Virus record (IMG/VR): IMGVR_UViG_3300044627_003892
DNA length: 64,000 nt
Strand: one strand, 5' to 3'
Origin: a virus
Taxonomy: Duplodnaviria > Caudoviricetes
This document shows positions 2,297-54,745 of this stretch, in pieces. Both the position numbers and the translations under genes were made by a program. Position 1 is the stretch's first letter. Every line of letters starts with the position of its first letter. The notes below the pieces were generated by a model that saw nothing but the letters and a program-made list of their open reading frames with translations, ran no database searches and was not told the DNA's origin.

Positions 2297-3076
2297 TTTT
2301 TCTTGATTTTGTCAAAATGTCAGTTGAGTGTCAGATGGGGGATAATCCCCTTGACGGGTTTTAGTCATATTAACAACTATAAATATAGTGTATATTATGT
2401 ATATTGTCCATAGGTAAATGTTCCCACTTTTTACCACTGACGTATGTGTAGTGAGGGTTTTTGGTTATATGAAAAGTGAAAAAAGTGGTCCTCCTGATAG
2501 TGTGAGAAGGGTTTTTTTAACTATATACATTTTCCAGATAAAAATAGGATGTAACAATAAAGTGGCGTGGACAGACTTTAGTTGTTTAAATCCTTCAACG
2601 AAAAGTGTATTTCATTGTGTCTTCAAGGGGGTTTTTAAGATTTCCCCTTACCATATAGACACATGATATCGACAATTATAGTGGTGGTAAAAAGTGGGAC
2701 ATATGTTTCATATCACTATAGTCAGGTTAAACCTGACATAACAGATATGTTTCGTATTGTCCCCTTCACATTCCACCATATATTTTATACCCTAACAGGT
2801 ATACTCATATCATCTTATATACCCTTTAGGGTATTTCATTATCCCGATGGGGTACAATACCATTAACAGTAATATGTTATGTCCCTTCATAGTGTGTGTC
2901 TTTCATTATGGGGAATTATTATAGATTAGTGTTGTACGTTAATTATAGATTCATACAATAGGGGAAATTAGGAAGTAAATAAAGGAATGGACCCATTAGT
3001 GTAATGACCCGAAGGGGAATGGAACGACACGATAGTGGAATGGGGGAATGAGTTTGTTTAATTCATAATTTCTTAT

Positions 3077-3084
3077 TATATTTG
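3077..3084 (+). promoter_or_regulatory. Bacteroidetes-type -7 promoter element (TAnnTTTG)
   Basis: TATATTTG 4 nt before the ATG at 3089; same motif at 10573-10580 before the paralog and before many other genes. Confidence 0.65.
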
Positions 3085-3088
3085 TACT

Positions 3089-3883
3089 ATGGTTATTACA
3101 GATAGATTAAAACAAATTATTTTTAAACACCTATATAGAGAGTTAGGTGATTGTGAGATTATTCCTTATAATGGGTCTATATGGTTCATTAATAGGGATA
3201 ATAAACATTGGTACTTTGAACTTGATGAGTCAGGTACTTTATGGTGGAGATACGATTTTTTTAATTCGTTTTTTCAAATATTCTCCATGAGTTCGGATGA
3301 TTTTTGTCCTGTTCTATCTTCTTGGGTGGAAGAGGTCTTAAATCATAAGGTATCCACAACCCAGGATAGCCTGTGTAACGTATGTAAACTGGTGGAAGAG
3401 GTCTTAAATCATAAGGTATCCACAACCTTCATTCCACTTCCAATTACAACGGACAAGGTGGAAGATGTATTAAATCATAAGGTATCCACAACGTGCGATG
3501 TTAAAGTTCGTGTTCCTTGGAAGGTGGAAGATGTATTAAGTCATAATGTTAAGGTGTCTACAACTACCATTCTCAAATACCCCGAGCATTCATTGGTGGA
3601 AAAGGTCTTAAATCATAAGGTATCCACAACCGATTCACTTGATTACGTTGGAAGAATTGAGGTAGAAGAGGTATTAAATCATAGGGTATCTAGAACCTGC
3701 CAAACAAGCGTTTATTGTGATAGGACGGTGGAAGAGGTCTTAAATCATAAGGTATCCACAACGCAGAATTTGAATTATGTCGGCCAAGGACTGGTGGAAG
3801 ATGTATTAAATCATAAGGTATCTACAACGGAATCGTATTTTGGACCCTTCACAAGAGGGGTGGAAGAGGTATTAAATCAATAA
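3089..3883 (+). CDS. array-bearing protein 1: conserved ~80-aa N-terminal domain + VEEVLNHKVSTT repeats with 10-aa variable inserts
   Basis: Open frame across the whole repeat-spacer array; N-terminal domain shared with 10586, 11208 and 11806. Confidence 0.85.
   Translation: MVITDRLKQIIFKHLYRELGDCEIIPYNGSIWFINRDNKHWYFELDESGTLWWRYDFFNSFFQIFSMSSDDFCPVLSSWVEEVLNHKVSTTQDSLCNVCKLVEEVLNHKVSTTFIPLPITTDKVEDVLNHKVSTTCDVKVRVPWKVEDVLSHNVKVSTTTILKYPEHSLVEKVLNHKVSTTDSLDYVGRIEVEEVLNHRVSRTCQTSVYCDRTVEEVLNHKVSTTQNLNYVGQGLVEDVLNHKVSTTESYFGPFTRGVEEVLNQ
3325..3879 (+). CRISPR. CRISPR-like array inside a CDS (8 full + 1 partial repeats, 8 spacers of 30 nt)
   Basis: Repeats start at 3325, 3391, 3457, 3523 (42 bp, +6 insertion), 3595, 3661, 3727, 3793, 3859 (partial); all spacers exactly 30 nt and mutually unrelated; no cas genes seen. 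Confidence 0.7.
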
Positions 3884-4339
3884 TTAGTTATTCTCTAAAG
3901 TACCTGTATAGAAATCTAATACCATATCAAAAATATCATCTAATACATCTTTTGGTAGTTCTTCATAAGACATATAACTTTCATCTAAAATTTGTGAGTA
4001 TTTATATCCACCATAATGAAACACTGTAACATCTTCTTTATTTATCATTTCTATTTGTGAAAGTTCACCGTCTTCATCCTTGAGGACTATTGGGTTTTCA
4101 TTCATATCCATTAGTACAATATATTCATCATCGGTTGTTTCTACTACTTCCTTAATAATCTTAATCTTATTGTTTGTTGTAAGGAACTCATCACCTAACA
4201 CATTTATAAGGTATTCTATACCACCGAACATTTCTCCTGTCTTTAGTAACCCCGCCTGACTTGCGATAGTTAATAACTTCATCTGTTTTACGGTGTATTC
4301 TTCCCTTAATATTCTTTTTATGTTTTGTTGTAGGTTCAT
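3884..4339 (-). CDS. MNLQE-leader family hypothetical protein
   Basis: MNLQQNIKRILREE N-terminus; TATTTATA motif upstream. Confidence 0.75.
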   Translation of the reverse strand: MNLQQNIKRILREEYTVKQMKLLTIASQAGLLKTGEMFGGIEYLINVLGDEFLTTNNKIKIIKEVVETTDDEYIVLMDMNENPIVLKDEDGELSQIEMINKEDVTVFHYGGYKYSQILDESYMSYEELPKDVLDDIFDMVLDFYTGTLENN

Positions 4340-4371
4340 AATATTATAAATATAATTATATTTATTATCAT

Positions 4372-4701
4372 ATGAAATATCTTATAACAGAATCACAATT
4401 AGATAAAGTAATCTTTAGATATTTGGATATTAAGAACTTTATTCAGATTAAAAGAGGAAACACAATATACTTTGTTAATTCGGAAGATGATAAATATGCC
4501 CAAATCAGATATGATAGAAACGATGGTTGGTGTTATATACGCCATGGATTAATTTACGAAATTTCTTCTTTCTTTTCTTTGGACATATATGATTCTAAGG
4601 AAGTTATCGGTAGATGGGTTGAAAATACTCTACAAATGAGGGTTACTTATACCCGTTTGGTCTTTCACGATGTGAACAATTTGTTTAAAATACCTAACTA
4701 A
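4372..4701 (+). CDS. MKYLITESQL-family protein
   Basis: Paralog of 7873, 6537, 10211 and 49322; ends WVENTL...FKIPN. Confidence 0.8.
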   Translation: MKYLITESQLDKVIFRYLDIKNFIQIKRGNTIYFVNSEDDKYAQIRYDRNDGWCYIRHGLIYEISSFFSLDIYDSKEVIGRWVENTLQMRVTYTRLVFHDVNNLFKIPN

Positions 4702-5410
4702 TAGTAATAATCTTCCACTCCCCATTATAATCTTCCACAAGACATGTAGAGTTCTCACAGAAGTCCCCTGAGTTCATATAGTAATTCTCTATCTTCGGAT
4801 GATGAATATGTCCACATACTGCCACATCATACCCCTTCTGTTTTGTTAGACCTTTTGCGTTATCCTCAAAATCAGATACAAAGTTAATTGCCCCTTTAAC
4901 AGATTGCTTTATTGTGTTTGCTAATGAATGATATGGTAAGTTAAACCACTTTCTTATTTTGTTATATAAAGTATTAAACTTAATCACAATATCATATGAC
5001 CATCCACCGATTACCGCTAACCACCTCGCTTCCATTATAACGAAATCCAATACATCCCCGTGAAAACAAAAATACTTTCTATTATCTATTCCTGTATGTA
5101 TATACTTTCTTACAATCCTGATGTTGTTTAATTTAAATGGAATAAAATCTTTTAGGAAGTCATCGTGGTTTCCTCTTATATAAACCACCTTTGTATTCTT
5201 CTCTGACATCTTCATGAACCTTCTGAATATCTTGGTACAATCCTTTGTCCATTTACCATTACCTTTAAGAGCCCAACCATCTATTATATCACCGTTCAGT
5301 ATTAGTTTTTCCGTTGTGTTATTATCCAAGAAACTTATTATCTTATCTGTCTGTGATTGTCTTGCTCCTAAGTGTAAATCACTCATGATTATCGTTTTCC
5401 AATTATTCAT
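4694..5410 (-). CDS. LpxH/PlcP-like metallophosphoesterase (UDP-2,3-diacylglucosamine hydrolase family)
   Basis: SDLHLG, GDIIDGW, GNHD, HGD, GHIH, NSGDFCE motifs. Confidence 0.85.
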   Translation of the reverse strand: MNNWKTIIMSDLHLGARQSQTDKIISFLDNNTTEKLILNGDIIDGWALKGNGKWTKDCTKIFRRFMKMSEKNTKVVYIRGNHDDFLKDFIPFKLNNIRIVRKYIHTGIDNRKYFCFHGDVLDFVIMEARWLAVIGGWSYDIVIKFNTLYNKIRKWFNLPYHSLANTIKQSVKGAINFVSDFEDNAKGLTKQKGYDVAVCGHIHHPKIENYYMNSGDFCENSTCLVEDYNGEWKIITIS

Positions 5411-6141
5411 TCCCAGTATCCTTTATCATCCTCAAAATGATTTTTATTGTTCCTGTTGAAGAATGAACTAACCATAAGTTTTAACATATACCACACTCCT
5501 TTCTGTTTGAACCTTCTTGGACTTGTGAATACCGTTGTATTCATGATATAAAACTTGCTTGGTTTAACTTGTTTGGAGAATAGATAATCCTCGGCAACTC
5601 TTGCGTTTTCATCAAACCCACCGATTGTATCATATACTTCTTTCTTAACCATCATGAACCCACCAAGACAAAATGGTGTGATTGGTTTGAATACCTTTTG
5701 TATTGTGTCAAACAATCTGAATATACTATTATACTCACCTGTCGTTGACCTTACCTTACATGTAATCAAATCTGTATTATGTAATAAGAACTCCCATATA
5801 CAATTGTTTAATATGTTGAAATCCAATAAGAATATGTCAGCGTCCAAAAATAGAACATAAGGTGTTTCCACATTCTCTGCTCCCTTATTTCTTGCAACAG
5901 ACGGAAGTCCTCCTGAAATAATCTGTAGATTAAAATAATCTGTTCTCCTATTTTCCAAAGAATAGGATGTATAATCATCATCCGATGAATCACAAACAAT
6001 AACTCTAACATCTTGTATTCCCTTTTGAAAGTTTAATAAGGACAACGTTTGTTCTATTATCTTGCCCTCGTTCTTACAAGGGATTACTATGGTTAAAAAC
6101 TTTGATAAATCCATAATAATAACTATTAAAAACAACCTCAA
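5407..6141 (-). CDS. glycosyltransferase family 2
   Basis: IVIPCKNE, ARNKG, FLDAD, AEDY motifs; start may be the internal MDLSK. Confidence 0.85.
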   Translation of the reverse strand: MRLFLIVIIMDLSKFLTIVIPCKNEGKIIEQTLSLLNFQKGIQDVRVIVCDSSDDDYTSYSLENRRTDYFNLQIISGGLPSVARNKGAENVETPYVLFLDADIFLLDFNILNNCIWEFLLHNTDLITCKVRSTTGEYNSIFRLFDTIQKVFKPITPFCLGGFMMVKKEVYDTIGGFDENARVAEDYLFSKQVKPSKFYIMNTTVFTSPRRFKQKGVWYMLKLMVSSFFNRNNKNHFEDDKGYWE

Positions 6142-6222
6142 ACCATATTATCATATTCTTATTAAATTATTAACCCAATATGTATTGTTCAATTTTATGT
6201 GTATCTTTGTATTTATTATAAT

Positions 6223-6540
6223 ATGAAGATTGAGCATAAGGTTAAAGCAATTGTAAAACTAATTAATACATTATACTCTCCTGACGAGATTAAAGTTAGA
6301 AAGAGTGAGTTTGATGATGAGATGTTAATTGATGTTTACGTTTCTCATATTGATGACTCATATATAACCAACCCTTACCATTATAATCTTAATAAACTAA
6401 AGGAATTAAATTTAGAACGTGAGATTAGAAGGGCGATAAAGGATTTTTTGAGTATTAAAACAAGCGGACTTAATCCATACACAGGTTTCGCCCCGTATGC
6501 TGTTCACGGCATAACAATAGATGTAAGATTAATATTATGA
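6223..6540 (+). CDS. hypothetical phage protein
   Basis: ATG MKIEH after a tatctttg motif. Confidence 0.6.
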   Translation: MKIEHKVKAIVKLINTLYSPDEIKVRKSEFDDEMLIDVYVSHIDDSYITNPYHYNLNKLKELNLEREIRRAIKDFLSIKTSGLNPYTGFAPYAVHGITIDVRLIL

Positions 6541-6890
6541 AATACCTTATAACAGAATCAAAATTAGAGAAAGTAATCTTTAAGTATCTTGATATTCAGG
6601 ACTTTGTGATATATGACAACAAGAAGAGATTCAGCAATTATATATATTTCTTAAACAGTGAGTCAGATAGGGAATCACAGATTAGTGTTTATACTAACAA
6701 CGCCTTTGGTGAAGTTAGGAATTGGATATTTGTAAATCGTGATTTGACTGATAAATTATCTACCTTATTCCCCATTGGTAAATCGGATTGTTTGGATATA
6801 ATCAAAGAATGGGTTAATAATACTTTGGGTATTAGTGATAGTACGATTTGGGATGGTCCATATGATTACAGATTAGCGGTTACAGATTAA
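6537..6890 (+). CDS. MKYLITESQL-family protein
   Basis: MKYLITESKLEKVIFKYLD ... WVNNTL. Confidence 0.8.
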   Translation: MKYLITESKLEKVIFKYLDIQDFVIYDNKKRFSNYIYFLNSESDRESQISVYTNNAFGEVRNWIFVNRDLTDKLSTLFPIGKSDCLDIIKEWVNNTLGISDSTIWDGPYDYRLAVTD

Positions 6891-6903
6891 TAGTTAACGA
6901 AGA

Positions 6904-7182
6904 ATGAAATACTTAATTACAGAATCACAGTTAGAATCATTTTTACTTAGAAGGTTTACAATGGATGAATTGGAATCACTTAGGGATGATTATAACTACA
7001 TTATGGATGAAGAAGATTTTGAAGATTCCGCCGACAGAGATGATTACGCTTATGAATTAATTGAAAAGTTCATTGATAGACATAGAGGTGAAGAGTTTTT
7101 TCAATATGATGATGATACTGAATTCTATGATAAACGTTCCAAATATATTGGAGCATTACTCAAATTCTTAAACTCTAATTAA
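6904..7182 (+). CDS. MKYLITESQL-leader acidic protein
   Basis: Leader motif; unrelated acidic body. Confidence 0.7.
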   Translation: MKYLITESQLESFLLRRFTMDELESLRDDYNYIMDEEDFEDSADRDDYAYELIEKFIDRHRGEEFFQYDDDTEFYDKRSKYIGALLKFLNSN

Positions 7183-7185
7183 TCT

Positions 7186-7515
7186 TTAGAAACCTTTTCT
7201 TTCATTATACATCCGTGTAATTCTTTTTCTATAATGATTTTCTAACCCTTGGTGTATATCATCATACCAAAATTCATCTTCAGGTAATGTGCTAACAAAT
7301 CTCCAATGTACCCCATCCATCATAAAGGTTATTGTTGTGTAGACTAACTCATCTAAAAAATGTGAACTTAAAACCTTTCTGTCTTTTGTAAGACGATAAG
7401 CACCTTCAAAAGATTCAAGAAACTCATTTTCCATTTCATCATTAGAAAGTCTTCTTTTAATTCTCGCTGATAGTTCTTCCCTCAGTATTCTTTTTATAGA
7501 TTCTTTTAAGTTCAT
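7186..7515 (-). CDS. MNLQE-leader family protein
   Basis: MNLKESIKRILREE. Confidence 0.75.
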   Translation of the reverse strand: MNLKESIKRILREELSARIKRRLSNDEMENEFLESFEGAYRLTKDRKVLSSHFLDELVYTTITFMMDGVHWRFVSTLPEDEFWYDDIHQGLENHYRKRITRMYNERKGF

Positions 7516-7548
7516 ATTATTATAAATATGATTATATTTATATTCTAT

Positions 7549-7869
7549 ATGAAATATCTTATCACCGAATCACAATTAGATAAAGCCAAATCGGTAATAA
7601 ATAATTTAATGATATCTGAGTTAAATAATATATTAGATTATGATAGAACATCAGATAGTGATTTCATTAATATATATAGCCAGGAAAGAGGCCCTGATTT
7701 TTTTATTTTAATGGAGTTTGACCATAGTGATGGTAGATTATTTATTGATGAATCTTTTTTAGATAAGTTTTCATCCATGTATCCACTTGATAAAGAACAA
7801 TCAGGTAAATTCATTTCTGATTGGTTTAGTAAAGTATTTGATGTTGATGTTATGTTTTTTGAATATTAA
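7549..7869 (+). CDS. MKYLITESQL-leader protein
   Basis: Start reassigned to MKYLITESQL at 7549. Confidence 0.75.
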   Translation: MKYLITESQLDKAKSVINNLMISELNNILDYDRTSDSDFINIYSQERGPDFFILMEFDHSDGRLFIDESFLDKFSSMYPLDKEQSGKFISDWFSKVFDVDVMFFEY

Positions 7870-7872
7870 TAT

Positions 7873-8202
7873 ATGAAATACCTTATCACCGAATCACAAT
7901 TAGACAGAGTAATCTTTAGATATTTGGATATTAAGAACTTTATTCAGATTAAAAAGGGTGCAACTATATTTTTAGTTAATTTAGAAGATGATGAATACGC
8001 TGAGATTAGATATGATAAAATTAGTGGATGGTGTTACATTGTTAATAGTTTAATTAATGAAGTGGCCTCTTTCTTTTCTTTGGGTATCTCCGATTCCATG
8101 GAACTTATCCGTAGATGGGTTGAAAATACCCTCAAAGTAATAGTTGTACAAGTCCGTGGGGCTAAACCCGCACCGAATGTATGGATAAGAGTAAATAACT
8201 AA
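7873..8202 (+). CDS. MKYLITESQL-family protein
   Basis: Close paralog of 4372..4701. Confidence 0.8.
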   Translation: MKYLITESQLDRVIFRYLDIKNFIQIKKGATIFLVNLEDDEYAEIRYDKISGWCYIVNSLINEVASFFSLGISDSMELIRRWVENTLKVIVVQVRGAKPAPNVWIRVNN

Positions 8203-8210
8203 TATAATAT

Positions 8211-8621
8211 ATGAAATACATAATCACTGAGAATCAATATAGCAAAACTCTTAAACCCTTATTAGAGAAATTTGGTATGCGTACTCTGTGTAAAATGACT
8301 GATAAGGAACCTGAAGATATTATTGATGAGATTGGTCTTAAAGGAACAAGAGAAGATATTATCTTTCTAACAAAAACTATACTTGAAAATGATATCTCAA
8401 CCGTCTTGATGTATTGTAGTTATAATATCATACCCACTCGTGACTCTATGAACTTGGTCGTCTACATACCTAAGCCAGCTCCTGCAAATGTGGGAAGGTA
8501 TATCTATGAGGAAGGTACAAGAAGTATGTATAGAGATGTTATTTCTAAGGCTTTATATCAATTGGGTGGTGGTCTAATTAGAGTTCACAATATTGAGGTT
8601 TATAATACAGGAAATTGTTAA
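8211..8621 (+). CDS. MKYIITE-leader protein
   Basis: Leader motif, 136-aa ORF. Confidence 0.7.
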   Translation: MKYIITENQYSKTLKPLLEKFGMRTLCKMTDKEPEDIIDEIGLKGTREDIIFLTKTILENDISTVLMYCSYNIIPTRDSMNLVVYIPKPAPANVGRYIYEEGTRSMYRDVISKALYQLGGGLIRVHNIEVYNTGNC

Positions 8622-8637
8622 CTTATATTTATATATA

Positions 8638-8994
8638 ATGAAATATCTTATCACCGAATCAAAATTAAAAACATTCATTAAAAACAAGTTTAATATTGAC
8701 CTGACAGGTCGTGTGGAATTTGAACCTGATTCATATGAATTATTGGTTTATTTTGATAACTATCTTACTCAAGATAGTTTAGCAAGAAGACGGAGAATGG
8801 ATAACTATGGTCCGATATATTTTATAGAATTAGATAATGGAAATAAAATATTTTATCAAATGAATTATAGTTCAGACAGTCCTTTAATTCTTAGTAACGA
8901 AGGTGCTCAATATACTGAATCACAATTTATGAATTTACTTGGTATCTCAGGTCTTGGAATATCAATTGAACAATTTCTTGATTTATACGTATAA
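8638..8994 (+). CDS. MKYLITE-leader protein
   Basis: Start reassigned to MKYLITESKL at 8638, after TATTTATA. Confidence 0.7.
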   Translation: MKYLITESKLKTFIKNKFNIDLTGRVEFEPDSYELLVYFDNYLTQDSLARRRRMDNYGPIYFIELDNGNKIFYQMNYSSDSPLILSNEGAQYTESQFMNLLGISGLGISIEQFLDLYV

Positions 8995-9009
8995 GATACT
9001 TAATCACTA

Positions 9010-9810
9010 TTAGATTAACGTACCAACATATCCTAATGCATCCCAATGACTCTTTCCTTTTGGTGTCTTAGTTGCACCCGCTACCACATCTAATCCTCTT
9101 GCTTTCGATGGACCTGTAATAACATGTGATGATGGAACTCCTTTACCTACCGCAGACTGAACTGAACTTGATGTATTCTTAGATATAGCGTAAGGTTCTA
9201 CTATGAATAACTTACTTTTGTTTTTAATAAGAGAAGCAACTTTAGATGAGTATGAACATCCTGCACTGAATAATACAACTGTCGCGTTAGGATTTTGTAT
9301 GATTGCGGTTTCAATCTTATCAAATTGATTATATCTATATCCTATAACATTTTTCTTTGAACTATTACTTTTAAGTAAGTTTATTTGTTCACCTATGTTT
9401 AAGTCTCCCTTTCTATAATCTAATCCACCCATTAATATAACATCAACAATTGGAGCTTTAGAATCTTTTTTATCATCAGACTCCGTTGATTCGTATATGA
9501 CATCAACACATTCTTTATTATAAAACCTTTCTAAGTCATCCCTCATGTAGTTTTCTACATACGTAACACCATCTTTATATTTTAACCACTCAGACAACGG
9601 ACCATCGGTATCAGAACCATCTGTAATCATGTCCATAATTTCATGTTGTATACCACGCATGAATGCTTCAAAGTTTTCAAAATCACATGGATAATTAGTT
9701 ACATTGTTATCCCATACAAACGATTTAAATCTATTCAATCTTCTTTTGAACTTTGGTGAAAAATCTGTTTCTTCCCTTAATACTTTTTTTATATTCTCTT
9801 GTAGGTTCAT
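9010..9810 (-). CDS. MNLQE-leader protein with possible alpha/beta-hydrolase-like C-terminal domain
   Basis: Leader motif; C-terminal VILMGGLDY...VLFSAGC...H. Confidence 0.6.
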   Translation of the reverse strand: MNLQENIKKVLREETDFSPKFKRRLNRFKSFVWDNNVTNYPCDFENFEAFMRGIQHEIMDMITDGSDTDGPLSEWLKYKDGVTYVENYMRDDLERFYNKECVDVIYESTESDDKKDSKAPIVDVILMGGLDYRKGDLNIGEQINLLKSNSSKKNVIGYRYNQFDKIETAIIQNPNATVVLFSAGCSYSSKVASLIKNKSKLFIVEPYAISKNTSSSVQSAVGKGVPSSHVITGPSKARGLDVVAGATKTPKGKSHWDALGYVGTLI

Positions 9811-9842
9811 AATATTATAAATATAATTATATTTATTATTAC

Positions 9843-10214
9843 ATGAAGTATATTATTACCGAGTCACAACATAAATTAATATCCGAACTTGAAAGAACTT
9901 GGAGAGATTCTGAATATACGGAACAATACAATAGACTAAAACCTAAAATGATTCGTTATTTTGAAAATTTGGTTGATTCACATTCTGAAAATGATGTAAG
10001 ACTTAACTTATTTGATAGTGACCAAAACGCCGTAATGGTTTATAATAAACCAAGTGGTGATTTATACTATAATAGGAACTTTGACGATATATATGGTACA
10101 GCCTTTCCTCATCCCATTTGGTTAGTTCACGGCAAATTCATTATGTCAGATGTATTTAATGAGTTCTTTCCTGACTACGAAGTTAAATCAGTTAGAAGTA
10201 TAACATTATCATGA
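9843..10214 (+). CDS. MKYIITESQ-leader protein
   Basis: Leader motif. Confidence 0.7.
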   Translation: MKYIITESQHKLISELERTWRDSEYTEQYNRLKPKMIRYFENLVDSHSENDVRLNLFDSDQNAVMVYNKPSGDLYYNRNFDDIYGTAFPHPIWLVHGKFIMSDVFNEFFPDYEVKSVRSITLS

Positions 10215-10549
10215 AATATTTAATCACAGAATCACAATTAGATAAAGCAATACTCAAGTTTCTTGATAGTCAGGATTTTAATATAACTAAAATTGGTGCC
10301 AGTACATATATTTCATACCCTGAAGATGATTTTGCTCAGATTAAATATGGTGGTAATCATTCCAATAATGAATTGTGTTTTATCTATAAAGGTTTAATTG
10401 AAGCAATTTCTTCCTTCTTTTCTCTTAACAGTTATCAATCCACCAGAATTGTTGGGCAATGGGTTAAGAAAAAACTGAATTTGGAGGGTCAAATGTCCAA
10501 CAAGATAATGAGCTCCCAATGGTCGTTAAAATTACCAACTGAAGATTAA
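10211..10549 (+). CDS. MKYLITESQL-family protein
   Basis: Paralog of 4372 (AQIKY...ISSFFSL...IVGQWV). Confidence 0.8.
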   Translation: MKYLITESQLDKAILKFLDSQDFNITKIGASTYISYPEDDFAQIKYGGNHSNNELCFIYKGLIEAISSFFSLNSYQSTRIVGQWVKKKLNLEGQMSNKIMSSQWSLKLPTED

Positions 10550-10585
10550 TTTGTATTTTCAAAGTTTTTTTGTATCTTTGTGCTT

Positions 10586-11224
10586 ATGGTTACAGATAAG
10601 CTAAAACAACTCATATTCAAACACCTATACAAAGAGTTAGGTAATGTGGAGATAATCCCGTATAAAGACTCTGTATGGTTCATTGATAGGGAAAATTGTT
10701 ATTGGTATTTTCAGTTGTCTAAAGATGGATGTTTATTTTGGAGATACTCATTCTTCCCATCGTTTTTCAGTATTTTCTCTTTGGAGCAAAGTGAGTTTGA
10801 ACCAATAATATCTTCTTGGGTGGAAGAGGTATTAAATCATAAGGTATCCACGACAGGTAATAAGCTCGGTTACTTCTCGCGAAAGGTGGAAGAGGTATTA
10901 AATCATAAGGTATCCACAACAAAAATGTTTGTAATTGACGAATTTCCTCTGGTGGAAGAGGTATTAAATCATAAGGTATCCACAACTGAAGAGAAAACTA
11001 CTGTAACAGCAAAGTGGGTGGAAGAGGTCTTAAATCATAAGGTATCCGAAACTTTTGAAGTAGACGCCGCCCAAAAAAGAAAGGTAAAAAAAGTATTAGA
11101 TAGTAGGGTATCAACAACTAAAAATAATTCCTTATTTTCCGAAAGGTCAGTGGAAGAAGTATTAAATAGTGCTTGGGTGAAAAAGGCATTAAACAATAAA
11201 AAAGAAAATGAAAGTAACGGATAG
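10586..11224 (+). CDS. array-bearing protein 2
   Basis: ATG 5 nt after TATCTTTG; same N-terminal domain plus VEEVLNHKVSTT repeats. Confidence 0.85.
   Translation: MVTDKLKQLIFKHLYKELGNVEIIPYKDSVWFIDRENCYWYFQLSKDGCLFWRYSFFPSFFSIFSLEQSEFEPIISSWVEEVLNHKVSTTGNKLGYFSRKVEEVLNHKVSTTKMFVIDEFPLVEEVLNHKVSTTEEKTTVTAKWVEEVLNHKVSETFEVDAAQKRKVKKVLDSRVSTTKNNSLFSERSVEEVLNSAWVKKALNNKKENESNG
10819..11170 (+). CRISPR. CRISPR-like in-frame array (5 repeats + partial, 5 spacers of 30 nt)
   Basis: Repeats at 10819, 10885, 10951, 11017, 11083 (degenerate), 11149 (partial); 66-nt period. Confidence 0.65.
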
Positions 11225-11819
11225 ATTAAGACAACTCATATTCAAACAACTATACAAAGAATTAGGTAATGTGGAAATTATCCCTACCCAATACAGTTAT
11301 TGGTTTATTAATAGAGAAGAAAAATACTGGTATTTCCAACTAACTGAAAGTGGATGTTTATATTGGAGATATGATTATTTCAAATCTTTCTTTTCTTTTT
11401 TCTCTTTGGAGTCCAAAGATTTTGAACCAATTATTTCATCTTGGGTGGAAGAGGTATTGAATAGTAAAGTATCCACAACAATTGTGCAGATGCATCATAA
11501 GAAGGATTCGGTGGAAGAGGTATTGAATAGTAAGGTATCCACAACTCAGCAATTCAGTTTCACTTCGAATGATATGATGGAAGAGGTATTGAATAGTAAG
11601 GTATCCACAACTGCAGGAAAGGCAGGAACTGTAACCATTGCGGTGGAACAGGTATTGAATCGTAAGGTATCCAAAACAGTCCGTGACGTAGGTGAAGGAA
11701 ACTTTTTGGTGGAAGATATATTGAATCGTAAGGTATCCAAAACGGAAGAATTCATCTCAAGAAGAGCGGAATCGGTATATGAGGCATTAAACAACAAAAA
11801 AGAAAATGAAAGTAACTGA
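11208..11819 (+). CDS. array-bearing protein 3 (VEEVLNSKVSTT variant)
   Basis: Paralog overlapping the previous stop; repeat variant LNSK/LNRK. Confidence 0.85.
   Translation: MKVTDRLRQLIFKQLYKELGNVEIIPTQYSYWFINREEKYWYFQLTESGCLYWRYDYFKSFFSFFSLESKDFEPIISSWVEEVLNSKVSTTIVQMHHKKDSVEEVLNSKVSTTQQFSFTSNDMMEEVLNSKVSTTAGKAGTVTIAVEQVLNRKVSKTVRDVGEGNFLVEDILNRKVSKTEEFISRRAESVYEALNNKKENESN
11444..11795 (+). CRISPR. CRISPR-like in-frame array (5 repeats + partial, 5 spacers of 30 nt)
   Basis: Repeats at 11444, 11510, 11576, 11642, 11708, 11774 (partial); consensus GGTGGAAGAGGTATTGAATAGTAAGGTATCCACAAC. Confidence 0.65.
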
Positions 11820-12540
11820 TAGATTAAAACAGGTTGTATTCAAACAACTATACAAAGAATTAGGTAATGTGGAGATAATCCCATATAAAGATTCTATATG
11901 GTTAATTGACCGAGAAAAGGAGCATTGGTATTTTGAATTTGAAAAGAGTGGTCGTTTGTGGTGGAGATATTATTTCTTTAATAGTTTTTTTACTATTTTC
12001 TCATTGGAACCCAAAGATTTTGAACCAATACTCTCTTCTTGGGTGGAAGAGGTATTAAATCATAAGGTGCCCACAACTGAATTGTGTGCGGAGAAAAAGT
12101 ATGATGAGGTGGAAGAGGTATTAAATCATAAGGTATCTACAACTGTTTACATGGGCATGAAGGCAAGTGTGAAGATGGAAGAGGTATTAAATCATAAGGT
12201 ATCCACAACGCAAAACGATATCGGTAAAGAAGGTTTCTTGGTGGAAGATGTATTAAATCATAAGGTATCTACAACACAAACGACGAATGCGGAACAAGTG
12301 GTTTTGGTGGAAAAGGCATTAAATCATAAGGTGTCTACAATATCATTCAATACACCGCCGTTTCCGAATATGGTGGAGAAGGTATTAAATCATAAGGTGT
12401 CTAAAACCTATTGTAGACCCACTATTGTTCCCAGTGAGGTGAAAGAAGTCCTAAATCATAAGGTAACTACAACACACACATCACGTACATGTAATTCACC
12501 AGTGGTGGAAGAGGTATTAAATGAAAACCCCACTGAGTAG
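11806..12540 (+). CDS. array-bearing protein 4
   Basis: Paralog with 7 variable inserts. Confidence 0.85.
   Translation: MKVTDRLKQVVFKQLYKELGNVEIIPYKDSIWLIDREKEHWYFEFEKSGRLWWRYYFFNSFFTIFSLEPKDFEPILSSWVEEVLNHKVPTTELCAEKKYDEVEEVLNHKVSTTVYMGMKASVKMEEVLNHKVSTTQNDIGKEGFLVEDVLNHKVSTTQTTNAEQVVLVEKALNHKVSTISFNTPPFPNMVEKVLNHKVSKTYCRPTIVPSEVKEVLNHKVTTTHTSRTCNSPVVEEVLNENPTE
12042..12522 (+). CRISPR. CRISPR-like in-frame array (7 repeats + partial, 7 spacers of 30 nt)
   Basis: Repeats at 12042, 12108, 12174, 12240, 12306, 12372, 12438, 12504 (partial). Confidence 0.65.
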
Positions 12541-12593
12541 CGAATTCAATGGGGTTAATGTAGCCTAAACTACAACGGTCCTAAGTCCGTATC

Positions 12594-13214
12594 TTAAGTA
12601 TTTTTATCTCTAAGTCTTTCATCTGTTTCTTCTTGGACTTCAGGTATGAATCTATCCAAGATTATTTCATACACTTCTGGTAAGTAAAACGTATTATACC
12701 AATCAAATAAATTATCAACACTATTAAAAAAATAATTACCATTATGTGTATTATGTGTAAGTTCCACAAAATAATCACCATCACCACTTGTATCGTATAT
12801 TCCTACATTAGGTTTCTTTGAGTCATCTTCTAATCCATACCAATCAAGTTCAACGGGTGTATAATCAGCAGTTGCAAAAAAAGGTGTTGCCATTACCCAT
12901 ATTTTTTCTAATACATTAGGTGGATAGTGTCCCGATTTAAACTGCCTTGTCCAATAAAACACATCATCACTACTTATTTCAATTTCAAATCCTTTATATT
13001 TTGCAGGTAAATTACCATTTTCAATATTTTCAACCAATAGTTCTTTAGCAACAAATTCATCAATTTTTAAATCAGACATTTTGTATAAATAGGTAAGACT
13101 CACACCCATCATTTTTGCCGTCTTATAAACACCATGTTTACCAACAGTATCCATAATGAATTTACTCTTTTTATCTTCCCTTAATACTCTTCTTATGTGT
13201 TCCTGTAGATTCAT
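12594..13214 (-). CDS. MNLQE-leader family protein
   Basis: MNLQEHIRRVLRED. Confidence 0.75.
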   Translation of the reverse strand: MNLQEHIRRVLREDKKSKFIMDTVGKHGVYKTAKMMGVSLTYLYKMSDLKIDEFVAKELLVENIENGNLPAKYKGFEIEISSDDVFYWTRQFKSGHYPPNVLEKIWVMATPFFATADYTPVELDWYGLEDDSKKPNVGIYDTSGDGDYFVELTHNTHNGNYFFNSVDNLFDWYNTFYLPEVYEIILDRFIPEVQEETDERLRDKNT

Positions 13215-13215
13215 A

Positions 13216-13644
13216 TTAATTACTTTTACCTGTTCCTTTATTGATTAATTTTATACAGTTAGATGATATATTCTCAAATGTCACAATATGATGTTCATAA
13301 TCTCCACCTTCGAAATGTGCATCTCTATACCAAGTAACCCCAGCACATTCTGTATCTATTAACCATGTGTCATCATCATAACCATCACTAAACATATCTT
13401 CTTTATCCAATGAATCTGTGGCAAAAATTGCTGGTTGACATTCCGTATACCATTCACCATATAAATCCATTGCGTGATTCTCATAACATTCCCCTACCGA
13501 TGTCAACAACCCATTAAGTCGTATATTCTTTCTCCATACCGAATTTGATTTATGGACCACAAACTTATTAGGTGTATATTCATCTCCTGATGGAGAATAT
13601 AGTTCTTCCCTTAATATTCGTCTTATTGTTTCTTGTAGGTTCAT
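13216..13644 (-). CDS. MNLQE-leader protein, possible ADP-ribosyltransferase-like fold
   Basis: Leader motif; VVHKS...NIRLNGL...IFAT...IVTFENI pattern reminiscent of Tpt1/ART-like domains (weak). Confidence 0.5.
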   Translation of the reverse strand: MNLQETIRRILREELYSPSGDEYTPNKFVVHKSNSVWRKNIRLNGLLTSVGECYENHAMDLYGEWYTECQPAIFATDSLDKEDMFSDGYDDDTWLIDTECAGVTWYRDAHFEGGDYEHHIVTFENISSNCIKLINKGTGKSN

Positions 13645-15991: not shown

Positions 15992-16108
15992 TTTGTCAGT
16001 ATAAGTTTTTATCATTACATTTGTAGTAATGAAAAAGAGCGACAAAATAGAATCCGTAATCTTTACACTTGTTGCCTTGGTTGCAGTTGTATCAATGATT
16101 TTTATAGG

Positions 16109-17099: not shown

Positions 17100-17696
17100 T
17101 TACACAATATCTTTTGTTTCAATCAATGTATATGTAAAACGATTTCCGTGAATGTCTTTTGACTTACGACAAATCTTCATAAACTCTTCAAAGTCCGCAG
17201 CCTTCTTAAAGACCTGACATCCTTCAGACCAATTCTCAACATATGTTGAATCAGCACCTGCCTTGTGAATGTTAATACCATAAACACCTTCAGTGATTTT
17301 GTTCTCATCATAAGTCATATCTTTATTGGCATCACGATAAACTTTAACCGCTCTATCCTGTCCCAAAGCTTCGTACTTACCCTGATGTAATCTGATAATA
17401 TGTGAACCACGGTATTGACCTTCAACCAAACGAGCAACACCATCTTTGTTGTGGTATTCCATTACACCCTTCTTACCTGGGTCAGTCGTTGCCGGCCAAA
17501 CGTGACACTTCCATTGTCCATTCTCTTTGTAAGAAATAGTTAAATAATCATCAAAAGCATTTGTAACCTTTTGTCCTGTTGCAGTGTTTCTGATTCCAAC
17601 GATGTTAACATCGTAACCTTTATTAGCAGTATCTTCAAACCATACATAACCTTTTGATTTTACCGCAGTTTCAATTTGTTCTTTTGTGTAACTCAT
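17100..17696 (-). CDS. L,D-transpeptidase-like (YkuD-fold) putative peptidoglycan hydrolase/endolysin
   Basis: GINIHKAG...NWSEGCQV resembles the H-x(n)-S-x-G-C catalytic motif. Confidence 0.6.
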   Translation of the reverse strand: MSYTKEQIETAVKSKGYVWFEDTANKGYDVNIVGIRNTATGQKVTNAFDDYLTISYKENGQWKCHVWPATTDPGKKGVMEYHNKDGVARLVEGQYRGSHIIRLHQGKYEALGQDRAVKVYRDANKDMTYDENKITEGVYGINIHKAGADSTYVENWSEGCQVFKKAADFEEFMKICRKSKDIHGNRFTYTLIETKDIV

Positions 17697-17736
17697 AGTA
17701 TATTTGTTTTACTATAAGTATTTATATAATAAGAAA

Positions 17737-39479: not shown

Positions 39480-40808
39480 TTATTTTATTTTTATTTTCAT
39501 TTTGGTTCCACCTTCAATTTTTTCACAACTCAATTTAAAACCATGTTCTTCTAATATCGCAACACATATATTCAACCCAAGACCCTTCTCTTCACCAGTG
39601 ACATCAGCCTTCTTTGAATACTTTGTTAAATGTTTTTCAAGTTGTTTTTGTGAGAATCCTTTACCATTGTCCTCAACTATTAAATATTCTTCTTCGTTAT
39701 ATATCTTAACTTTTTTAACTTCACTATCGTTATATGATAAACCATTCTTAATTAAGTTCTCAACCGCATTACAGAATAAAGTCTCATTCACTTCCATATC
39801 ACCCAAGTCAGATATCTCAACCTGTGAACTATATGAATTTGGTGAAATGTATTTCCAAATCAAATCTTTAGCGTTAACCACAGATTTATTTAACACAACA
39901 TTTTGTTTAACAAGATTGGTAAACTCATAAACACTCTTATAAACTTTTTGAGTGTGGTTTAATCCTTCTTTAACCATCTTAAGTGCTCCTTCAATCTTCA
40001 ATCTTTGGATGTCCTCAACGGTTAATCTTTTTTCTAATGATGTAATACCTCTTGGCATGTATGTATTAATACCTGAGTGCATGTCATGTCTGATGATTCT
40101 TGCTGCGTGTTCCAAGTAACTATTCTTCTTAGCAATATCACTAATCTGTTGTTCAATCTCAACATCCTGTACTTGTATTCTCTTTCTTTGTAAGACAACC
40201 GCCAATATTAAAACAAACAGTATAACAACACCTAAAGCACCATAAAGGTATTTCTTCAAGGTCTCTCTTTGTTTTTCCAAATCAGTTTTTTCAGTCATCA
40301 AATTTCCATTCTCATCCATTAAGTCATCAGTCTCCAAAGTCAAACCGATGATATTCTTTTCTTTACTTAACGAAGTAATGGTATTTTCTTTTGATTTTAT
40401 AAGTTCTTCATTTCTTATAGCTTGAGCTAATAATAAATCTCGTTCTGCGGTAAGTTTATTAATCTTGTTATCAATTTGAACTAATACATTTTTTAAATCT
40501 TCTTTAGGTAAATCAGTATACGATTTTGGTAAGTCAGTTAAAAACTGTAAGTCTTCAGCAATACTTGCTAAATCACTTTCAGACAATTTAGTTTCATCAA
40601 CTGGTTCAGGTTCAGGTGGAATCCAAGTTGTAACGATTTCTTGTATATCCATAGCCGCAACTTGACTAGTATCACCATCAATCTGTAAATTATCGTTAGA
40701 CCATGAAACGTCAATTCCGTCAACTAATGTATCGTTGTAATTCAAATTTTGTGAGTGTAAACCTGTCGATACGAGTGTTACTAAAATCAATAATATTATC
40801 TTTTTCAT
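39480..40808 (-). CDS. membrane sensor histidine kinase
   Basis: Signal peptide, coiled coil, TM, IRHDMHSG (H box), NLIKNG (N box), DNGKG, GLGLNIC. Confidence 0.9.
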   Translation of the reverse strand: MKKIILLILVTLVSTGLHSQNLNYNDTLVDGIDVSWSNDNLQIDGDTSQVAAMDIQEIVTTWIPPEPEPVDETKLSESDLASIAEDLQFLTDLPKSYTDLPKEDLKNVLVQIDNKINKLTAERDLLLAQAIRNEELIKSKENTITSLSKEKNIIGLTLETDDLMDENGNLMTEKTDLEKQRETLKKYLYGALGVVILFVLILAVVLQRKRIQVQDVEIEQQISDIAKKNSYLEHAARIIRHDMHSGINTYMPRGITSLEKRLTVEDIQRLKIEGALKMVKEGLNHTQKVYKSVYEFTNLVKQNVVLNKSVVNAKDLIWKYISPNSYSSQVEISDLGDMEVNETLFCNAVENLIKNGLSYNDSEVKKVKIYNEEEYLIVEDNGKGFSQKQLEKHLTKYSKKADVTGEEKGLGLNICVAILEEHGFKLSCEKIEGGTKMKIKIK

Positions 40809-41425
40809 TACTTTTTTAATTCTTCTTTTAATAAACTTTTATTTTTCCAAATCCATGATTCATATCTTCGAGTTATACCATTAAAATCAAGAAACTTTAA
40901 ATTGTGAAAATAATTTGTTGCTGGTGCGAACTGCATATCAAACTCTTCTCTGAATTTTTTATATTCTTCATACTCACTTTTAGTCATTTTTTCAAAAACA
41001 AGAATTTTTCCGTATTCATGAGTGTAAAGATTGTAATCATCTAAATTCACAAAATATAACTTGTTGTATGGGGGTATAGTGTATATGAACGCTCCATTTG
41101 TAGCGTATTCCCAAAGAGTCATGTTCAATTCATCAGCCCATTTATATGTCGTATCTGCTACATATTTGATACTATCTAACATGTTAGGTATATTTTCAAC
41201 AATGTTATTTAAACTATCTATCTTATTATTTAAGGATGTGATTTTTTTACCTTGTTCTCTAATAATCCTTCTTTGTGTTTCAATTGCTTTATTAATATCA
41301 ACAGATTGTTTAACAGATAGGATAACAACAGAGTCACCTCTATAGATTGTTTGAATTGGGTATTTAATTTGACTAAACCCAAACAAAGAAATTGTTAAGA
41401 AAATAAAAGTTAGTAATGTTTTCAT
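40808..41425 (-). CDS. secreted coiled-coil hypothetical protein
   Basis: Signal peptide; lies between the two kinases. Confidence 0.65.
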   Translation of the reverse strand: MKTLLTFIFLTISLFGFSQIKYPIQTIYRGDSVVILSVKQSVDINKAIETQRRIIREQGKKITSLNNKIDSLNNIVENIPNMLDSIKYVADTTYKWADELNMTLWEYATNGAFIYTIPPYNKLYFVNLDDYNLYTHEYGKILVFEKMTKSEYEEYKKFREEFDMQFAPATNYFHNLKFLDFNGITRRYESWIWKNKSLLKEELKK

Positions 41426-42693
41426 TTAAATTTGATTTTCATTTTAGTTCCTGTTTCATTTTTTTCACAGGTTATTTTAAATCCGTGTTCTTCTAAAATG
41501 GCAACACAGATATTCAATCCTAAACCAGTACCCGATTCTTTTTGACCTTCTTTTCTGGTGTATGGTTTTGATAAATAATTAAAATCTTCTTGGGTAATAC
41601 CTCTACCATTATCCTGTATGAATATCATATCACCTTCAGAGTATATCTTAACAAACTTTGTTTCAGAGTCGTTATACTTTAAACCATTCCTAATTAGATT
41701 ATCAACTGCAGTACAGAACAATGGTTCATTCAATTCAATCGTTGGTAGGTTATCATCCAACATAACCTGACTAATGTATGCCGTCGAGGACAAATAGTCC
41801 TTGAGAATGTCCTTGATGTTAAATTCAGTTTTATTAAGAACAACATCTTTCTTTACCAGATTGGTAAATTCATAAACACCTTTATAAACTTTCTGTGAAT
41901 GCTTAAGTCCTTCCTTAATCATTTTAAGTGGTGCCTCAATTTTAAGTTTAACAATATCTTCTTGAGTTAATCTTCTCTCCAACGAGTTAACACCTCTTGG
42001 TATATAGGTATTAATACCTGAATGCATATCGTGTCTCAATATCTTAGCAGCATGTTCCAAGTATGTATTCTTTCTTTCAATCTCTTTCTTCTGTTCGTAA
42101 GAATTCGTGATATCAATAGCGATTTTCATAACACGATAAATCTTACCATCAGTATCAAAAATAGGATTGTAGGTCGCTTGTAAATAAACTAAAGACCCAT
42201 CTTTTTTAACTCTAACAATTTCCCCTGAAAATAATACACCACTTCTTAATTTTTCCCAAAAAAGACAATAATCCTCACTTTTCTCATAATCATCTTCCAC
42301 AAAAATTCTGTGATGTTTTCCAACTATTTCATCCTGTGATGGATATCCCATAGTTTTTATAAACAAATCATTGGCAAAAATAATATTACCTTCTAAATCA
42401 AATTCAATTACCGCATTAGATTTATTGATAGCGGTCATTCTATTAGTAAGTTCATTTTCTATTTTAATTAACTTATCTACAGATTCTTTAGATATTGAAT
42501 TTTTATTAGATTTGATAAAGTCTTTAATCATTAATATTGATATAGGAATTAACAAAATAAAACAAATGTATTCAATACCACGTGTAACTCTTGTTGATTC
42601 CTGTATTTCAAGTAAAACCGATGTTTTAACCAAAAAGAATACAGACATTATTAAAATAGAACAAAGTAAATAGATTTTTGTTTTTTTAGTCAT
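41422..42693 (-). CDS. PAS/PAC sensor histidine kinase
   Basis: 2 TMs, PAS (AVIEFDLEGNIIFANDLF...GKHHRIF...ATYNPI), LRHDMHSG, NLIRNG, DNGRG, GLGLNIC. Confidence 0.92.
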   Translation of the reverse strand: MTKKTKIYLLCSILIMSVFFLVKTSVLLEIQESTRVTRGIEYICFILLIPISILMIKDFIKSNKNSISKESVDKLIKIENELTNRMTAINKSNAVIEFDLEGNIIFANDLFIKTMGYPSQDEIVGKHHRIFVEDDYEKSEDYCLFWEKLRSGVLFSGEIVRVKKDGSLVYLQATYNPIFDTDGKIYRVMKIAIDITNSYEQKKEIERKNTYLEHAAKILRHDMHSGINTYIPRGVNSLERRLTQEDIVKLKIEAPLKMIKEGLKHSQKVYKGVYEFTNLVKKDVVLNKTEFNIKDILKDYLSSTAYISQVMLDDNLPTIELNEPLFCTAVDNLIRNGLKYNDSETKFVKIYSEGDMIFIQDNGRGITQEDFNYLSKPYTRKEGQKESGTGLGLNICVAILEEHGFKITCEKNETGTKMKIKFK

Positions 42694-52381: not shown

Positions 52382-52751
52382 TTTTTTCCTTATTTTATTT
52401 TTTATGTTTATTGAACCCCACTTCGTTGGTATTTCTCCAACTCAACTGTCTCACAGGACAGGTGGACCTCATCAACAAGGTTTCATTAATAACTATAAGG
52501 TAATTTGTTTTTTTTGTAAATAAAAAACCCCACTCTTTTGGAATGGGGGTTTAAGATTGTCGGTTATAATTCACACCAACCAAGACATACCTTACCAAAG
52601 GTAATCTTTTGAACTAATTTGCAAATATATTTCTTCATACTTTATAAATATTATATTAATATAAAAACCCCACTCTTTTGGAGATGGGGTTTAACAAACT
52701 CGGGCCCAGCGAGCCAATATTTCAGGAAGCGCCCTTTTTAAAGTTGGTTTG

Positions 52752-52834
52752 TGGGAGTAGAAGGACTCGAACCTACGAAACCAAAATGGTGAAACATTTA
52801 CAGTGTTTTGCAATTGCCTCTATGCGATACTCCC
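52752..52834 (-). tRNA. tRNA-Tyr(GTA)
   Basis: Anticodon arm aaaca-ctGTAaa-tgttt, long variable arm, GGTTCGAGTCC. Confidence 0.85.
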
Positions 52835-52941
52835 CTTAATTCTTTTACAAAGATACTATAAATATTTAAAAAAACAAGAAAAAAATGATTAGGACAACTA
52901 ACTTTTGATAAGAGTTCGTATATTTATAATAAAAGAGCATT

Positions 52942-53841: not shown

Positions 53842-53910
53842 CCCGTGGCGGTAACGCTCCGCCGTCTCTGCCGTGAAAGGGCAGTGTACTTACTTCTATA
53901 CGAACGGGCC
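53839..53910 (-). tRNA. tRNA-Glu(TTC), non-canonical T loop
   Basis: ctgcc-ctTTCac-ggcag; T arm ggcgg-AGCGTTA-ccgcc. Confidence 0.75.
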
Positions 53911-54671: not shown

Positions 54672-54745
54672 ATCACAAATATAAGGCGAAATACTTTACC
54701 CCACAAATTTTTTTGTAGTACGCTTTCACATTACGTAATACCTAA

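Follow-up and report, generated by a model that had tools for sequence, protein, structure and literature searches.

In this study, we describe four protein-coding genes of a huge phage whose 3' parts are built like CRISPR arrays. The genes lie in a 64,000-nt stretch, record IMGVR_UViG_3300044627_003892, which is part of the phage genome, has a guanine-plus-cytosine (GC) content of about 32% and is called, as a whole, the window. We propose, at a probability of about 60%, that CRISPR-type arrays are embedded in frame in these phage protein genes and that the type II-C Cas1-Cas2 of the bacterial host serves in trans as the integrase. Comparison of the arrays with each other and with bacterial chromosomes shows that a new 66-bp unit consists of a 30-bp piece of host chromosome and a duplicated 36-bp repeat. 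It further shows that units are added preferentially at the junction between the N-terminal domain (N-domain) and the first repeat, inside a Trp codon (TG/GGTG, the slash marking the junction), and that host genes contribute fragments in any frame and from both strands, without a flanking motif. Units are, on the same comparison, also lost whole, and the arrays found are only those with a frame open to a conserved C-terminal tail. An earlier reading of the window (the original prediction) had proposed a DNA-level process resembling spacer acquisition, with duplication of the repeat, and this is now established as far as sequence can establish it. The original prediction foresaw neither the origin of the inserts in the host chromosome nor the host as the likely source of the integrase.

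Architecture of the array genes

The 36-nt repeat consensus is found at 15 sites of the window at ≤3 mismatches, all of them on the + strand, and at none in 100 shuffles. Under looser matching it marks four arrays with a strict 66-nt period. This period (36-nt repeat plus 30-nt spacer) holds in 14 of 14 sources, namely the window and 13 related loci. Each array forms the 3' part of an open reading frame (ORF) and is preceded, in frame, by a folded N-domain of about 79 amino acids (aa).

Gene A (3089-3883, + strand, 264 aa) starts with the coding sequence of the N-domain (3089-3324), which occupies the position of a CRISPR leader and whose helix a3 extends into the first repeat. Array A follows (3325-3880, +), with repeats starting at 3325, 3391, 3457, 3523, 3595, 3661, 3727 and 3793, a partial terminal repeat at 3859 and eight 30-nt spacers starting at 3361, 3427, 3493, 3565, 3631, 3697, 3763 and 3829. 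Eight full 36-bp repeats and a partial one had been predicted; eight repeats and the partial one are there, and seven of the eight have 36 nt, the one at 3523-3564 being a 42-nt variant with a 6-nt insertion that preserves the frame. The partial repeat encodes VEEVLNQ, followed by the stop codon. The three further array paralogues that had been predicted are also present, each an N-domain with an array on the + strand: gene B (10586-11224; repeats from 10819, degenerating 3'-ward), gene C (11208-11819; repeats from 11444) and gene D (11806-12540; repeats from 12042). Genes B, C and D overlap end to start. The spacers number 25 (A 8, B 5, C 5, D 7), and all of them have 30 nt.

Unit boundaries fall within codons. 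At the domain-repeat junction, the first G of the repeat completes the Trp codon as its third base, and 24 of the 25 spacers are followed directly by a G, the sole exception lying at 11149. The codons with that G specify Leu (7), Lys (5), Glu (3), Ser (3), Met (2) and Thr, Gly, Trp, Ala and Val (1 each), Met and Trp thus accounting for just three. Spacer base 1, the wobble base of the last Thr codon of the repeat, varies freely. On all these details of the codon phase the original prediction proved accurate.

Searches of reference collections gave no assignment. Rfam over positions 2500-13000 revealed no CRISPR or other RNA family, Pfam and PHROGs gave no match for the four array genes or their paralogues, and the array genes had no DNA or protein match among the INPHARED phages, even at E≤1.

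Origin of the spacers

Metagenome contigs were scanned with the core of spacer A1 (3361-3390, +), which is domain-proximal and occurs only in this phage, and two repeat-free contigs matched. A1 is a copy of rplM in antisense; it is identical at 30/30 positions in one contig (L045) and at 29/30 in the other (L046), and no repeats flank it there. External protospacers, which had been suggested as a check, therefore exist: the 30/30 and 29/30 matches lie in bacterial chromosomal genes and are bounded exactly at the spacer ends. The matching chromosomal fragment carries sdhABC, tsf, rpsB, rpsI, rplM, queA and truB. Its SdhA placed it in the Bacteroidota, and its family was searched with the arrays.

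For the window and the arrays of related phages, 21 distinct protospacers were found at 26-30/30 identity, 17 of them at 28-30, the edges of the matches coinciding exactly with those of the spacers. They cover 9-11 of the 25 spacers of the window. All protospacers lie in a single Bacteroidota genus, represented by 27 small-genome freshwater genomes of 1.6-2.8 Mb; the arrays of the window match 22 of these 27, and those of related phages match the same genus. The genes concerned include rplM, secA, a dehydrogenase, a nuclease-like gene and a SIS-domain gene, among others. Spacer A2 (3427-3456, +) is a copy of a host S1/P1-nuclease-like gene, sense and out of the host frame, identical at 30/30 positions to genome G514 and at 27-29/30 to roughly 20 others of the genus. 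Spacer A3 (3493-3522, +; CDVKVRVPWK) copies a SIS-domain gene in the host's own frame (27/30 to genome G603, host peptide CDVEVRVPW) and is the most widely shared cassette, occurring in 28 of 96 arrays. Further host-gene matches were obtained for the + strand spacers at 11546 and 11612 in array C, the latter being secA in frame, and at 12078, 12144 and 12210 in array D.

Ten of the 21 protospacers are antisense, five are sense but out of frame and six are sense in the host frame. The in-frame share (29%) compares with about 27% estimated for a stop filter alone. The GC content is 42.1% both in the host loci and in the spacers, versus about 32% in the phage. Since the spacer sequences are parts of conserved housekeeping genes present in many genomes, the direction of transfer is from host to phage. 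Judged by these matches, the host of this uncultured huge phage is one genus of streamlined lake Bacteroidota.

No full-length spacer match was found in 401 Bacteroidota genomes sampled across the phylum, a sample from which the host genus is absent. A comparison of 89 spacers with a related 240-kb phage genome, the window and other loci revealed no self-protospacer at ≤6 mismatches, and five domain-proximal spacers searched in IMG/VR gave either no match or their own contigs only.

Dynamics of the arrays across related phages

Orthologous arrays are collinear and differ by the presence or absence of whole 66-nt units. Where phages with differing N-domains have a spacer in common, its DNA is almost the same in each, whereas the remaining spacers are unrelated to each other and no intermediates are seen. 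The original prediction had named, as an outcome that would speak against it, spacers that are point-mutated copies of one ancestor; this is not what is found, the pairwise Hamming distances among 71 spacer clusters being those of random sequences. The 96 arrays hold 228 cassette clusters, 153 of which are singletons, and singletons make up 48% of the first, domain-proximal units versus 19% of the last. Unit-wise gain and loss, proposed earlier as a test, is thus borne out between orthologous arrays, with novelty concentrated at the domain-proximal end. Mismatches to the repeat consensus increase distally in arrays B, C and D. Internal differences between orthologous arrays are present as well, as deletions would give.

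Four arrays per genome are maintained across diverged phages. In diverged copies, conservation at synonymous sites is 0.76-0.94 in the repeat versus 0.47-0.65 in the N-domain, and the repeat uses rare codons. In lake metagenome runs with release dates between 2018 and 2024 the arrays show no change; the array is present in 14 public runs from the lake, and the locus was found in no usable RNA run. Logan contigs of four lake runs break at every repeat and are uninformative on gain or loss of units within a population. In contigs of two lake runs (X9 and X12), a repeat of array B (10977) is joined to a repeat of array D (12434) with 35 other letters between them. This join probably represents the array of a related phage with a different spacer, and it shows that array variants co-exist in one lake. 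In a divergent phage lineage (locus L012, 5333-6150), the 66-nt in-frame layout recurs with another repeat (VEEVLNHEVETT, ending GAAACAAC).

Several hallmarks of CRISPR loci are therefore seen: constant lengths of repeats and spacers, spacers copied from elsewhere, and growth at the leader end with distal decay of the repeats. Another hallmark, a non-coding array behind an AT-rich non-coding leader, is lacking, as the array is an ORF and the leader position encodes a folded domain. The promoter of the array gene lies upstream of the ATG.

Translation of the arrays

None of the 71 mutually unrelated spacer clusters from the window and the 13 related loci contains an in-frame stop codon; in the other five frames, 17-44 of the 71 do, depending on the frame. 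An early stop would merely yield a protein resembling the one-unit paralogues described below, yet the stop-free rule is strict. The C-terminal tail is conserved across arrays and the frame is kept open through to it. A promoter motif of the Bacteroidetes type (TTTG-N20-TAnnTTTG; 3053-3084, +) ends 4 nt before the ATG of gene A, and another (10550-10580, +) lies directly upstream of gene B, the first of the overlapping genes B-C-D. The motif TTTG-N17-21-TAnnTTTG occurs 17 times in the window versus 3.9 expected (about fourfold), a number reached in 0 of 100 shuffles; further sites of this Bacteroidetes sigma-A type include 15992-16023 and 17675-17706. As the motifs end 4-5 nt from the ATGs of A and B, leaderless mRNAs are implied. 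Of 20 distinct substitutions in spacers common to several phages, 10 leave the amino acid of the ORF frame unchanged, compared with an expectation of 24% synonymous changes (p=0.01).

From the stop-free frames, the own promoter, the conserved C-terminal tail and the synonymous excess in shared spacers we infer that the array protein is made. The stop-free rule, the tails and the synonymous excess moreover argue that the translated product matters, in preference to a role as RNA only or a neutral scar. The peptides encoded by singletons correlate at r=0.86 with the random translation of DNA of 42% GC, versus r=0.60 with the phage proteome.

The N-domain and its gene family

An AlphaFold2 (AF2) model of the N-domain, taken as the first 79 residues, has a predicted local distance difference test (pLDDT) score of 89.5 and the order a1-b1-b4-a2-a3. 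In this model the last helix (a3) ends within the first repeat, the 5' half of the repeat encoding the end of that helix. A search of a protein atlas with the N-domain was empty, and the AF2 model had no informative fold match. The model of full-length gene A has a pLDDT of 48.

The N-domain is homologous to a neighbouring family of small proteins without arrays (BLASTP E=4e-7), and the homology continues through the first repeat (WVEEVLNHKVSTT versus WVENTLQMRVTYT). Metagenomes contain more than 1000 homologues of the array genes, with lengths in 22-aa steps. Paralogues with other repeat sequences have a single unit each. One of them (4372-4701, +) is a one-spacer mini-array made of a repeat-equivalent (4617-4652), a 30-nt insert (4653-4682), a partial repeat and a stop codon. 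Its repeat lacks the CACAAC end, and its insert matches host genome G613 at 28/30, the edges of the match being exactly the predicted spacer ends. Three further + strand paralogues gave no host match: one at 7873-8202 with a 36+30+19-nt layout and a 30-nt insert of 57% GC, and two with a short tail past a WV motif, at 6537-6890 (43 nt, i.e. 30+13 nt, after the repeat-equivalent) and 10211-10549 (52 nt after it).

The region 3884-13644 is packed with two large paralogous families of small genes. The + strand family, the members of which start with MKYLITESQL..., includes the array genes. Members of the - strand family start with MNLQE.I.RILREE (3884-4339, 7186-7515, 9010-9810, 12594-13214 and 13216-13644). 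Both families have a conserved N-terminal helix and a variable remainder. This arrangement is reminiscent of the capsid-targeting sequences of phage internal proteins.

Candidate sources of the integrase

A search for Cas1, Cas2 or reverse transcriptase genes had been recommended with the original prediction. It was run on five related phage records (IMG/VR contigs of 130-240 kb, estimated to be 45-82% complete), in which Cas1, Cas2, RVT_1 and rve gave no match. The closest phage record has no Cas effector among its ten large ORFs, and no candidate gene was found consistently beside the arrays.

In the host genus, one genome harbours a type II-C locus (cas9, cas1, cas2) with 47-nt repeats and 30-nt spacers; the spacers of this single array have no match to the phage. 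Four arrays next to cas1-cas2 in the host family were read. All four have 30-nt spacers and repeats that end in CACAAC, and read from the leader these repeats start with GGTG or GTTG (three of four) or ACTG. The phage repeat also ends in CACAAC and shares the ends GKTG...CACAAC and the polarity with the II-C repeats of the host family. In two host-family genomes (G459 and G470), the leader ends in TTG before the first repeat, as in the phage. One of the four arrays has 36-nt repeats and 30-nt spacers, period 66. At locus L082 (G428:C33:104000-109000), cas1-cas2 are followed by a 36/30 array of period 66 ending in CACACAAC.

Arrays of type VI-B have 36-nt repeats and 30-nt spacers (10.1101/092577), and Cas1-less VI-B arrays of Flavobacterium columnare gain spacers through a co-resident II-C Cas1-Cas2 (PMC8092290). 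The phage arrays resemble them in the 36/30 geometry and the 66-nt unit, in the repeat ends G(K)TG...ACAAC, in a leader upstream of the G(K)TG end, in transcription from leader to array and in having no adaptation genes of their own. When 185,579 species genomes were scanned for the ends and the geometry of the phage repeat, only the VI-B arrays of F. columnare and F. covae were retrieved, the repeat of which is identical to that of the phage at 24/36 positions. Both kinds of array contain spacers from the host genome; VI-B arrays take phage spacers too, whereas the matched spacers of the phage arrays are all from the host. Unlike VI-B arrays, those of the window are phage-borne ORFs with a protein-coding domain in the leader position. 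Neither cas13b nor such arrays were seen in the host family, and the phage repeat folds weakly and does not keep the inner hairpin of the VI-B repeat. A direct link to a type VI-B system of the host was rejected as weak, given that 36-nt arrays with both GKTG and CACAAC ends are absent from 236 genomes of the host family and that no Cas effector was found in the phage.

Taken together, the repeat ends, the 30-nt spacers, the polarity and the VI-B precedent make the host II-C Cas1-Cas2 the most likely integrase.

We also looked at a candidate anti-repeat of the tracrRNA type, the only match (18/20) to the reverse complement of the repeat, at 40034-40053 (+). It lies in an unrelated ORF (39480-40808, -) and is probably due to chance, though shuffled queries gave none.

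Further features of the phage

The window contains 14 tRNA genes (52751-63910, all on the - strand), with two copies each of those for Glu, Met and Leu(tag). Among its PHROG matches are a thymidylate synthase and an RNA ligase. A full-length DnaK/Hsp70 homologue (42766-44646, -) shares 62-70% identity with those of metagenomic phages of 630-735 kb; the ORFs that come after it (39480-40808 and 41422-42693) match a PHROG annotated as kinase. Over the roughly 700 nt upstream of gene A (2400-3088), there are only short odd ORFs and small palindromes such as ACCCTTTAGGGT and CCCGATGGGG. This segment may be non-coding or regulatory.

Discussion

We suggest that during infection the type II-C Cas1-Cas2 of the host would act in trans on the phage genes. 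It would recognise the domain-repeat junction together with the repeat ends GKTG...CACAAC, which are common to the phage repeat and the II-C repeats of the host family. Of random insertions, about half would bring in a stop codon and be purged, because the translated product matters. The product would consist of a small folded domain and a chain in which constant 12-aa segments alternate with 10-aa peptides encoded by host DNA.

Several findings weigh against this proposal. A protospacer-adjacent motif (PAM) is not apparent, as no flanking position exceeds 0.15 bit in the 21 protospacers, the flanks being those of relatives of the source strain; a PAM is normally seen in type II adaptation. 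No phage-derived spacers were seen in the phage collections and phage relatives searched, which is unusual for adaptation in infected cells. The only II-C system of the host genus has 47-nt, not 36-nt, repeats, and Cas1 is present in just one genome among the 27 of the genus and in 16 among the 236 of the family; a good many of these assemblies are probably incomplete. With related phage genomes 45-82% complete, an integrase of the phage could have been missed. The variable segments of the divergent lineage L012 have no match in the host family searched; this lineage may have another host. Finally, the array part of the protein is modelled by AF2 at low confidence (pLDDT 25-50).

Alternatively, the phage may encode an unrecognised integrase or nuclease-ligase set of its own that copies host DNA, in which case the likeness to II-C arrays would be convergence or coincidence. 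The great size of the family (over 1000 homologues, with four arrays and several one-unit paralogues in each genome), the rarity of Cas1 in the host genus and the lack of a PAM would all suit such an enzyme. The same is true of the paralogues that have quite different repeats and still hold a 30-nt insert at the same 36-nt offset. We nevertheless consider this explanation unlikely, since Cas1, Cas2, reverse transcriptase and rve-type integrase were not found in the five related records, no candidate gene stands consistently beside the arrays, and the II-C arrays of the host family agree with those of the phage in the two repeat ends, the polarity and the spacer length of 30 nt.

A second alternative, to which we give a similarly low probability, is that the arrays act as RNA. 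They might be guides against host genes for a Cas effector of the host, or decoys that load host Cas proteins, translation merely protecting the long transcript from termination or degradation. There is precedent, in that huge phages carry Cas-less CRISPR arrays with spacers matching host chromosomal genes, among them genes of transcription and translation (Al-Shayeb et al. 2020, PMC7162821). Common to those arrays and the ones described here are the huge phage, the Bacteroidota host, the absence of Cas1, Cas2 and Cas4, and spacers that match host genes, those for translation (such as rplM) among them. The DnaK of the window is closest to that of 630-735-kb phages reported in that work. The arrays of Al-Shayeb et al. 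are non-coding loci thought to supply guides, whereas those of the window are joined in frame to a folded domain and contain no stop; they also differ in occurring as four paralogues with one-unit relatives, in random strand use and in having no PAM. Viral mini-arrays and solitary repeat units, which act as RNA anti-CRISPRs, are likewise known (PMC10651486, PMC11656645). Like the phage arrays they are virus-borne CRISPR-like repeats related to host repeats and without cas genes. Mini-arrays have one or two spacers mostly targeting related viruses, repeats identical to those of the host and no coding function; the phage arrays have up to eight spacers, the traced ones all from the host, match host repeats at the ends only and are translated. 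Some spacers of the phage are antisense to rplM and other host genes, the repeat is more conserved at synonymous sites than the N-domain, and it shares 24/36 identity, the 36/30 geometry and the sense orientation with the F. columnare VI-B repeat (10.1101/092577), which would be in keeping with a role as RNA. Strand use is random, however (10 antisense, 11 sense), so that half of the spacers would be useless as guides for an RNA-targeting effector, and for a DNA-targeting effector a PAM is missing. Arrays with 36-nt GKTG and CACAAC repeats are absent from the 236 host-family genomes, the repeat folds weakly, and shared spacers show a synonymous excess in the ORF frame. As regards protection of the transcript, there is no co-directional gene downstream of gene A for polarity to affect.

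Thirdly, the arrays could be functionless scars. Host Cas1-Cas2 would have integrated off target at a phage site resembling a leader-repeat junction, the products being tolerated wherever the gene is not broken; in a variant of this idea, the arrays are retained as decoys, drawing host adaptation complexes away from the host array. Off-target integration by Cas1-Cas2 is described as yielding neo-CRISPR arrays, the repeat of which is the sequence that follows the integration site (Nivala et al. 2018, as cited in 10.1101/148544). According to that account, the likeness extends to duplication of a native sequence at a fixed ruler length within unrelated DNA. The account concerns over-expressed Cas1-Cas2 in Escherichia coli, and such arrays are not known to persist in nature, whereas the phage arrays are conserved in a large phage family under reading-frame constraint. 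The repeat indeed derives from the gene's own last helix, and the peptides of singletons look like randomly translated host DNA (r=0.86 with random translation at 42% GC versus 0.60 with the phage proteome). Even so, scars would hardly keep their C-terminal tails and exclude stop codons from all 71 spacer clusters, given that an early stop leaves a protein like the one-unit paralogues. They would also not be expected to persist as four arrays per genome across diverged phages, to stay unchanged in lake runs released in 2018-2024 or to bear signs of purifying selection on retained cassettes, and we rate this explanation somewhat below the two preceding ones. A role as RNA, be it as guides or decoys, or as a sink for host adaptation complexes is possible.

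An ordinary tandem-repeat protein, formed by slippage or unequal crossing-over with variable segments diverged by point mutation under diversifying selection, has practically no chance of being correct: the 22-aa period and the conserved 12-aa segment do recall a repeat protein, a kind of gene that CRISPR finders often mistake for an array, but the spacers are mutually random-like without intermediates, shared spacers are nearly identical where N-domains differ, unit boundaries lie within codons, and the reading is refuted by spacers that copy host genes exactly, irrespective of strand and frame.

Returning to CRISPR-type arrays written in frame by the host integrase, their product may be a phage protein subject to diversification, perhaps an effector confronting host defences; this is our best guess as to its role, and a doubtful one. 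A broader reading, tentative but slightly better placed, is that a family of huge phages employs, as a writing device, CRISPR integrase chemistry that is borrowed from the host or due to an unrecognised enzyme of the phage. This device would enter 30-bp pieces of host DNA in frame into a whole family of the phage's genes, creating heritable strings of new 10-aa peptides, set on a constant scaffold, which selection keeps or discards. Diversification would then be what the arrays are for, and not a by-product that is merely put up with. A diversity-generating retroelement (DGR), from which the original prediction had set this system apart, needs a reverse transcriptase and a template repeat and mutates adenines. 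The phage arrays are rightly kept distinct, having no template repeat and, in the five related records, no RVT_1; their spacers show no relation to one another or to the phage genome. Hypervariable precursors of multi-core peptides, such as the cyanobactin precursor PatE, also set variable cassettes in a constant frame with flanks conserved at the nucleotide level. We know of no external DNA source and no repeat duplication for cassettes of the PatE type.

We found no published description of arrays that are in frame, translatable and built on the last helix of a domain across a paralogous family, and no report of integrated spacers serving as coding sequence; the known use of such spacers is as a source of guide RNA. 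The genes described here show CRISPR-type spacer integration acting on protein-coding genes of a virus, with the reading frame as the filter. They allow a sequence-based assignment of the host for an uncultured huge phage, and they are a natural example of a mobile element whose array, lacking Cas1, seems to rely on the host's adaptation module. The domain-repeat junction offers a substrate for probing recognition by the II-C integrase, including how one integrase could serve repeats of 47 nt and 36 nt. Moreover, the arrays suggest a route to new peptide sequence from non-homologous DNA in any frame. If their product is functional, they would represent a new kind of viral diversification system. 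If the phage does use integrase chemistry to write host DNA into its genes, this would be adaptive diversification at the protein level in a virus, mechanistically unrelated to DGRs.

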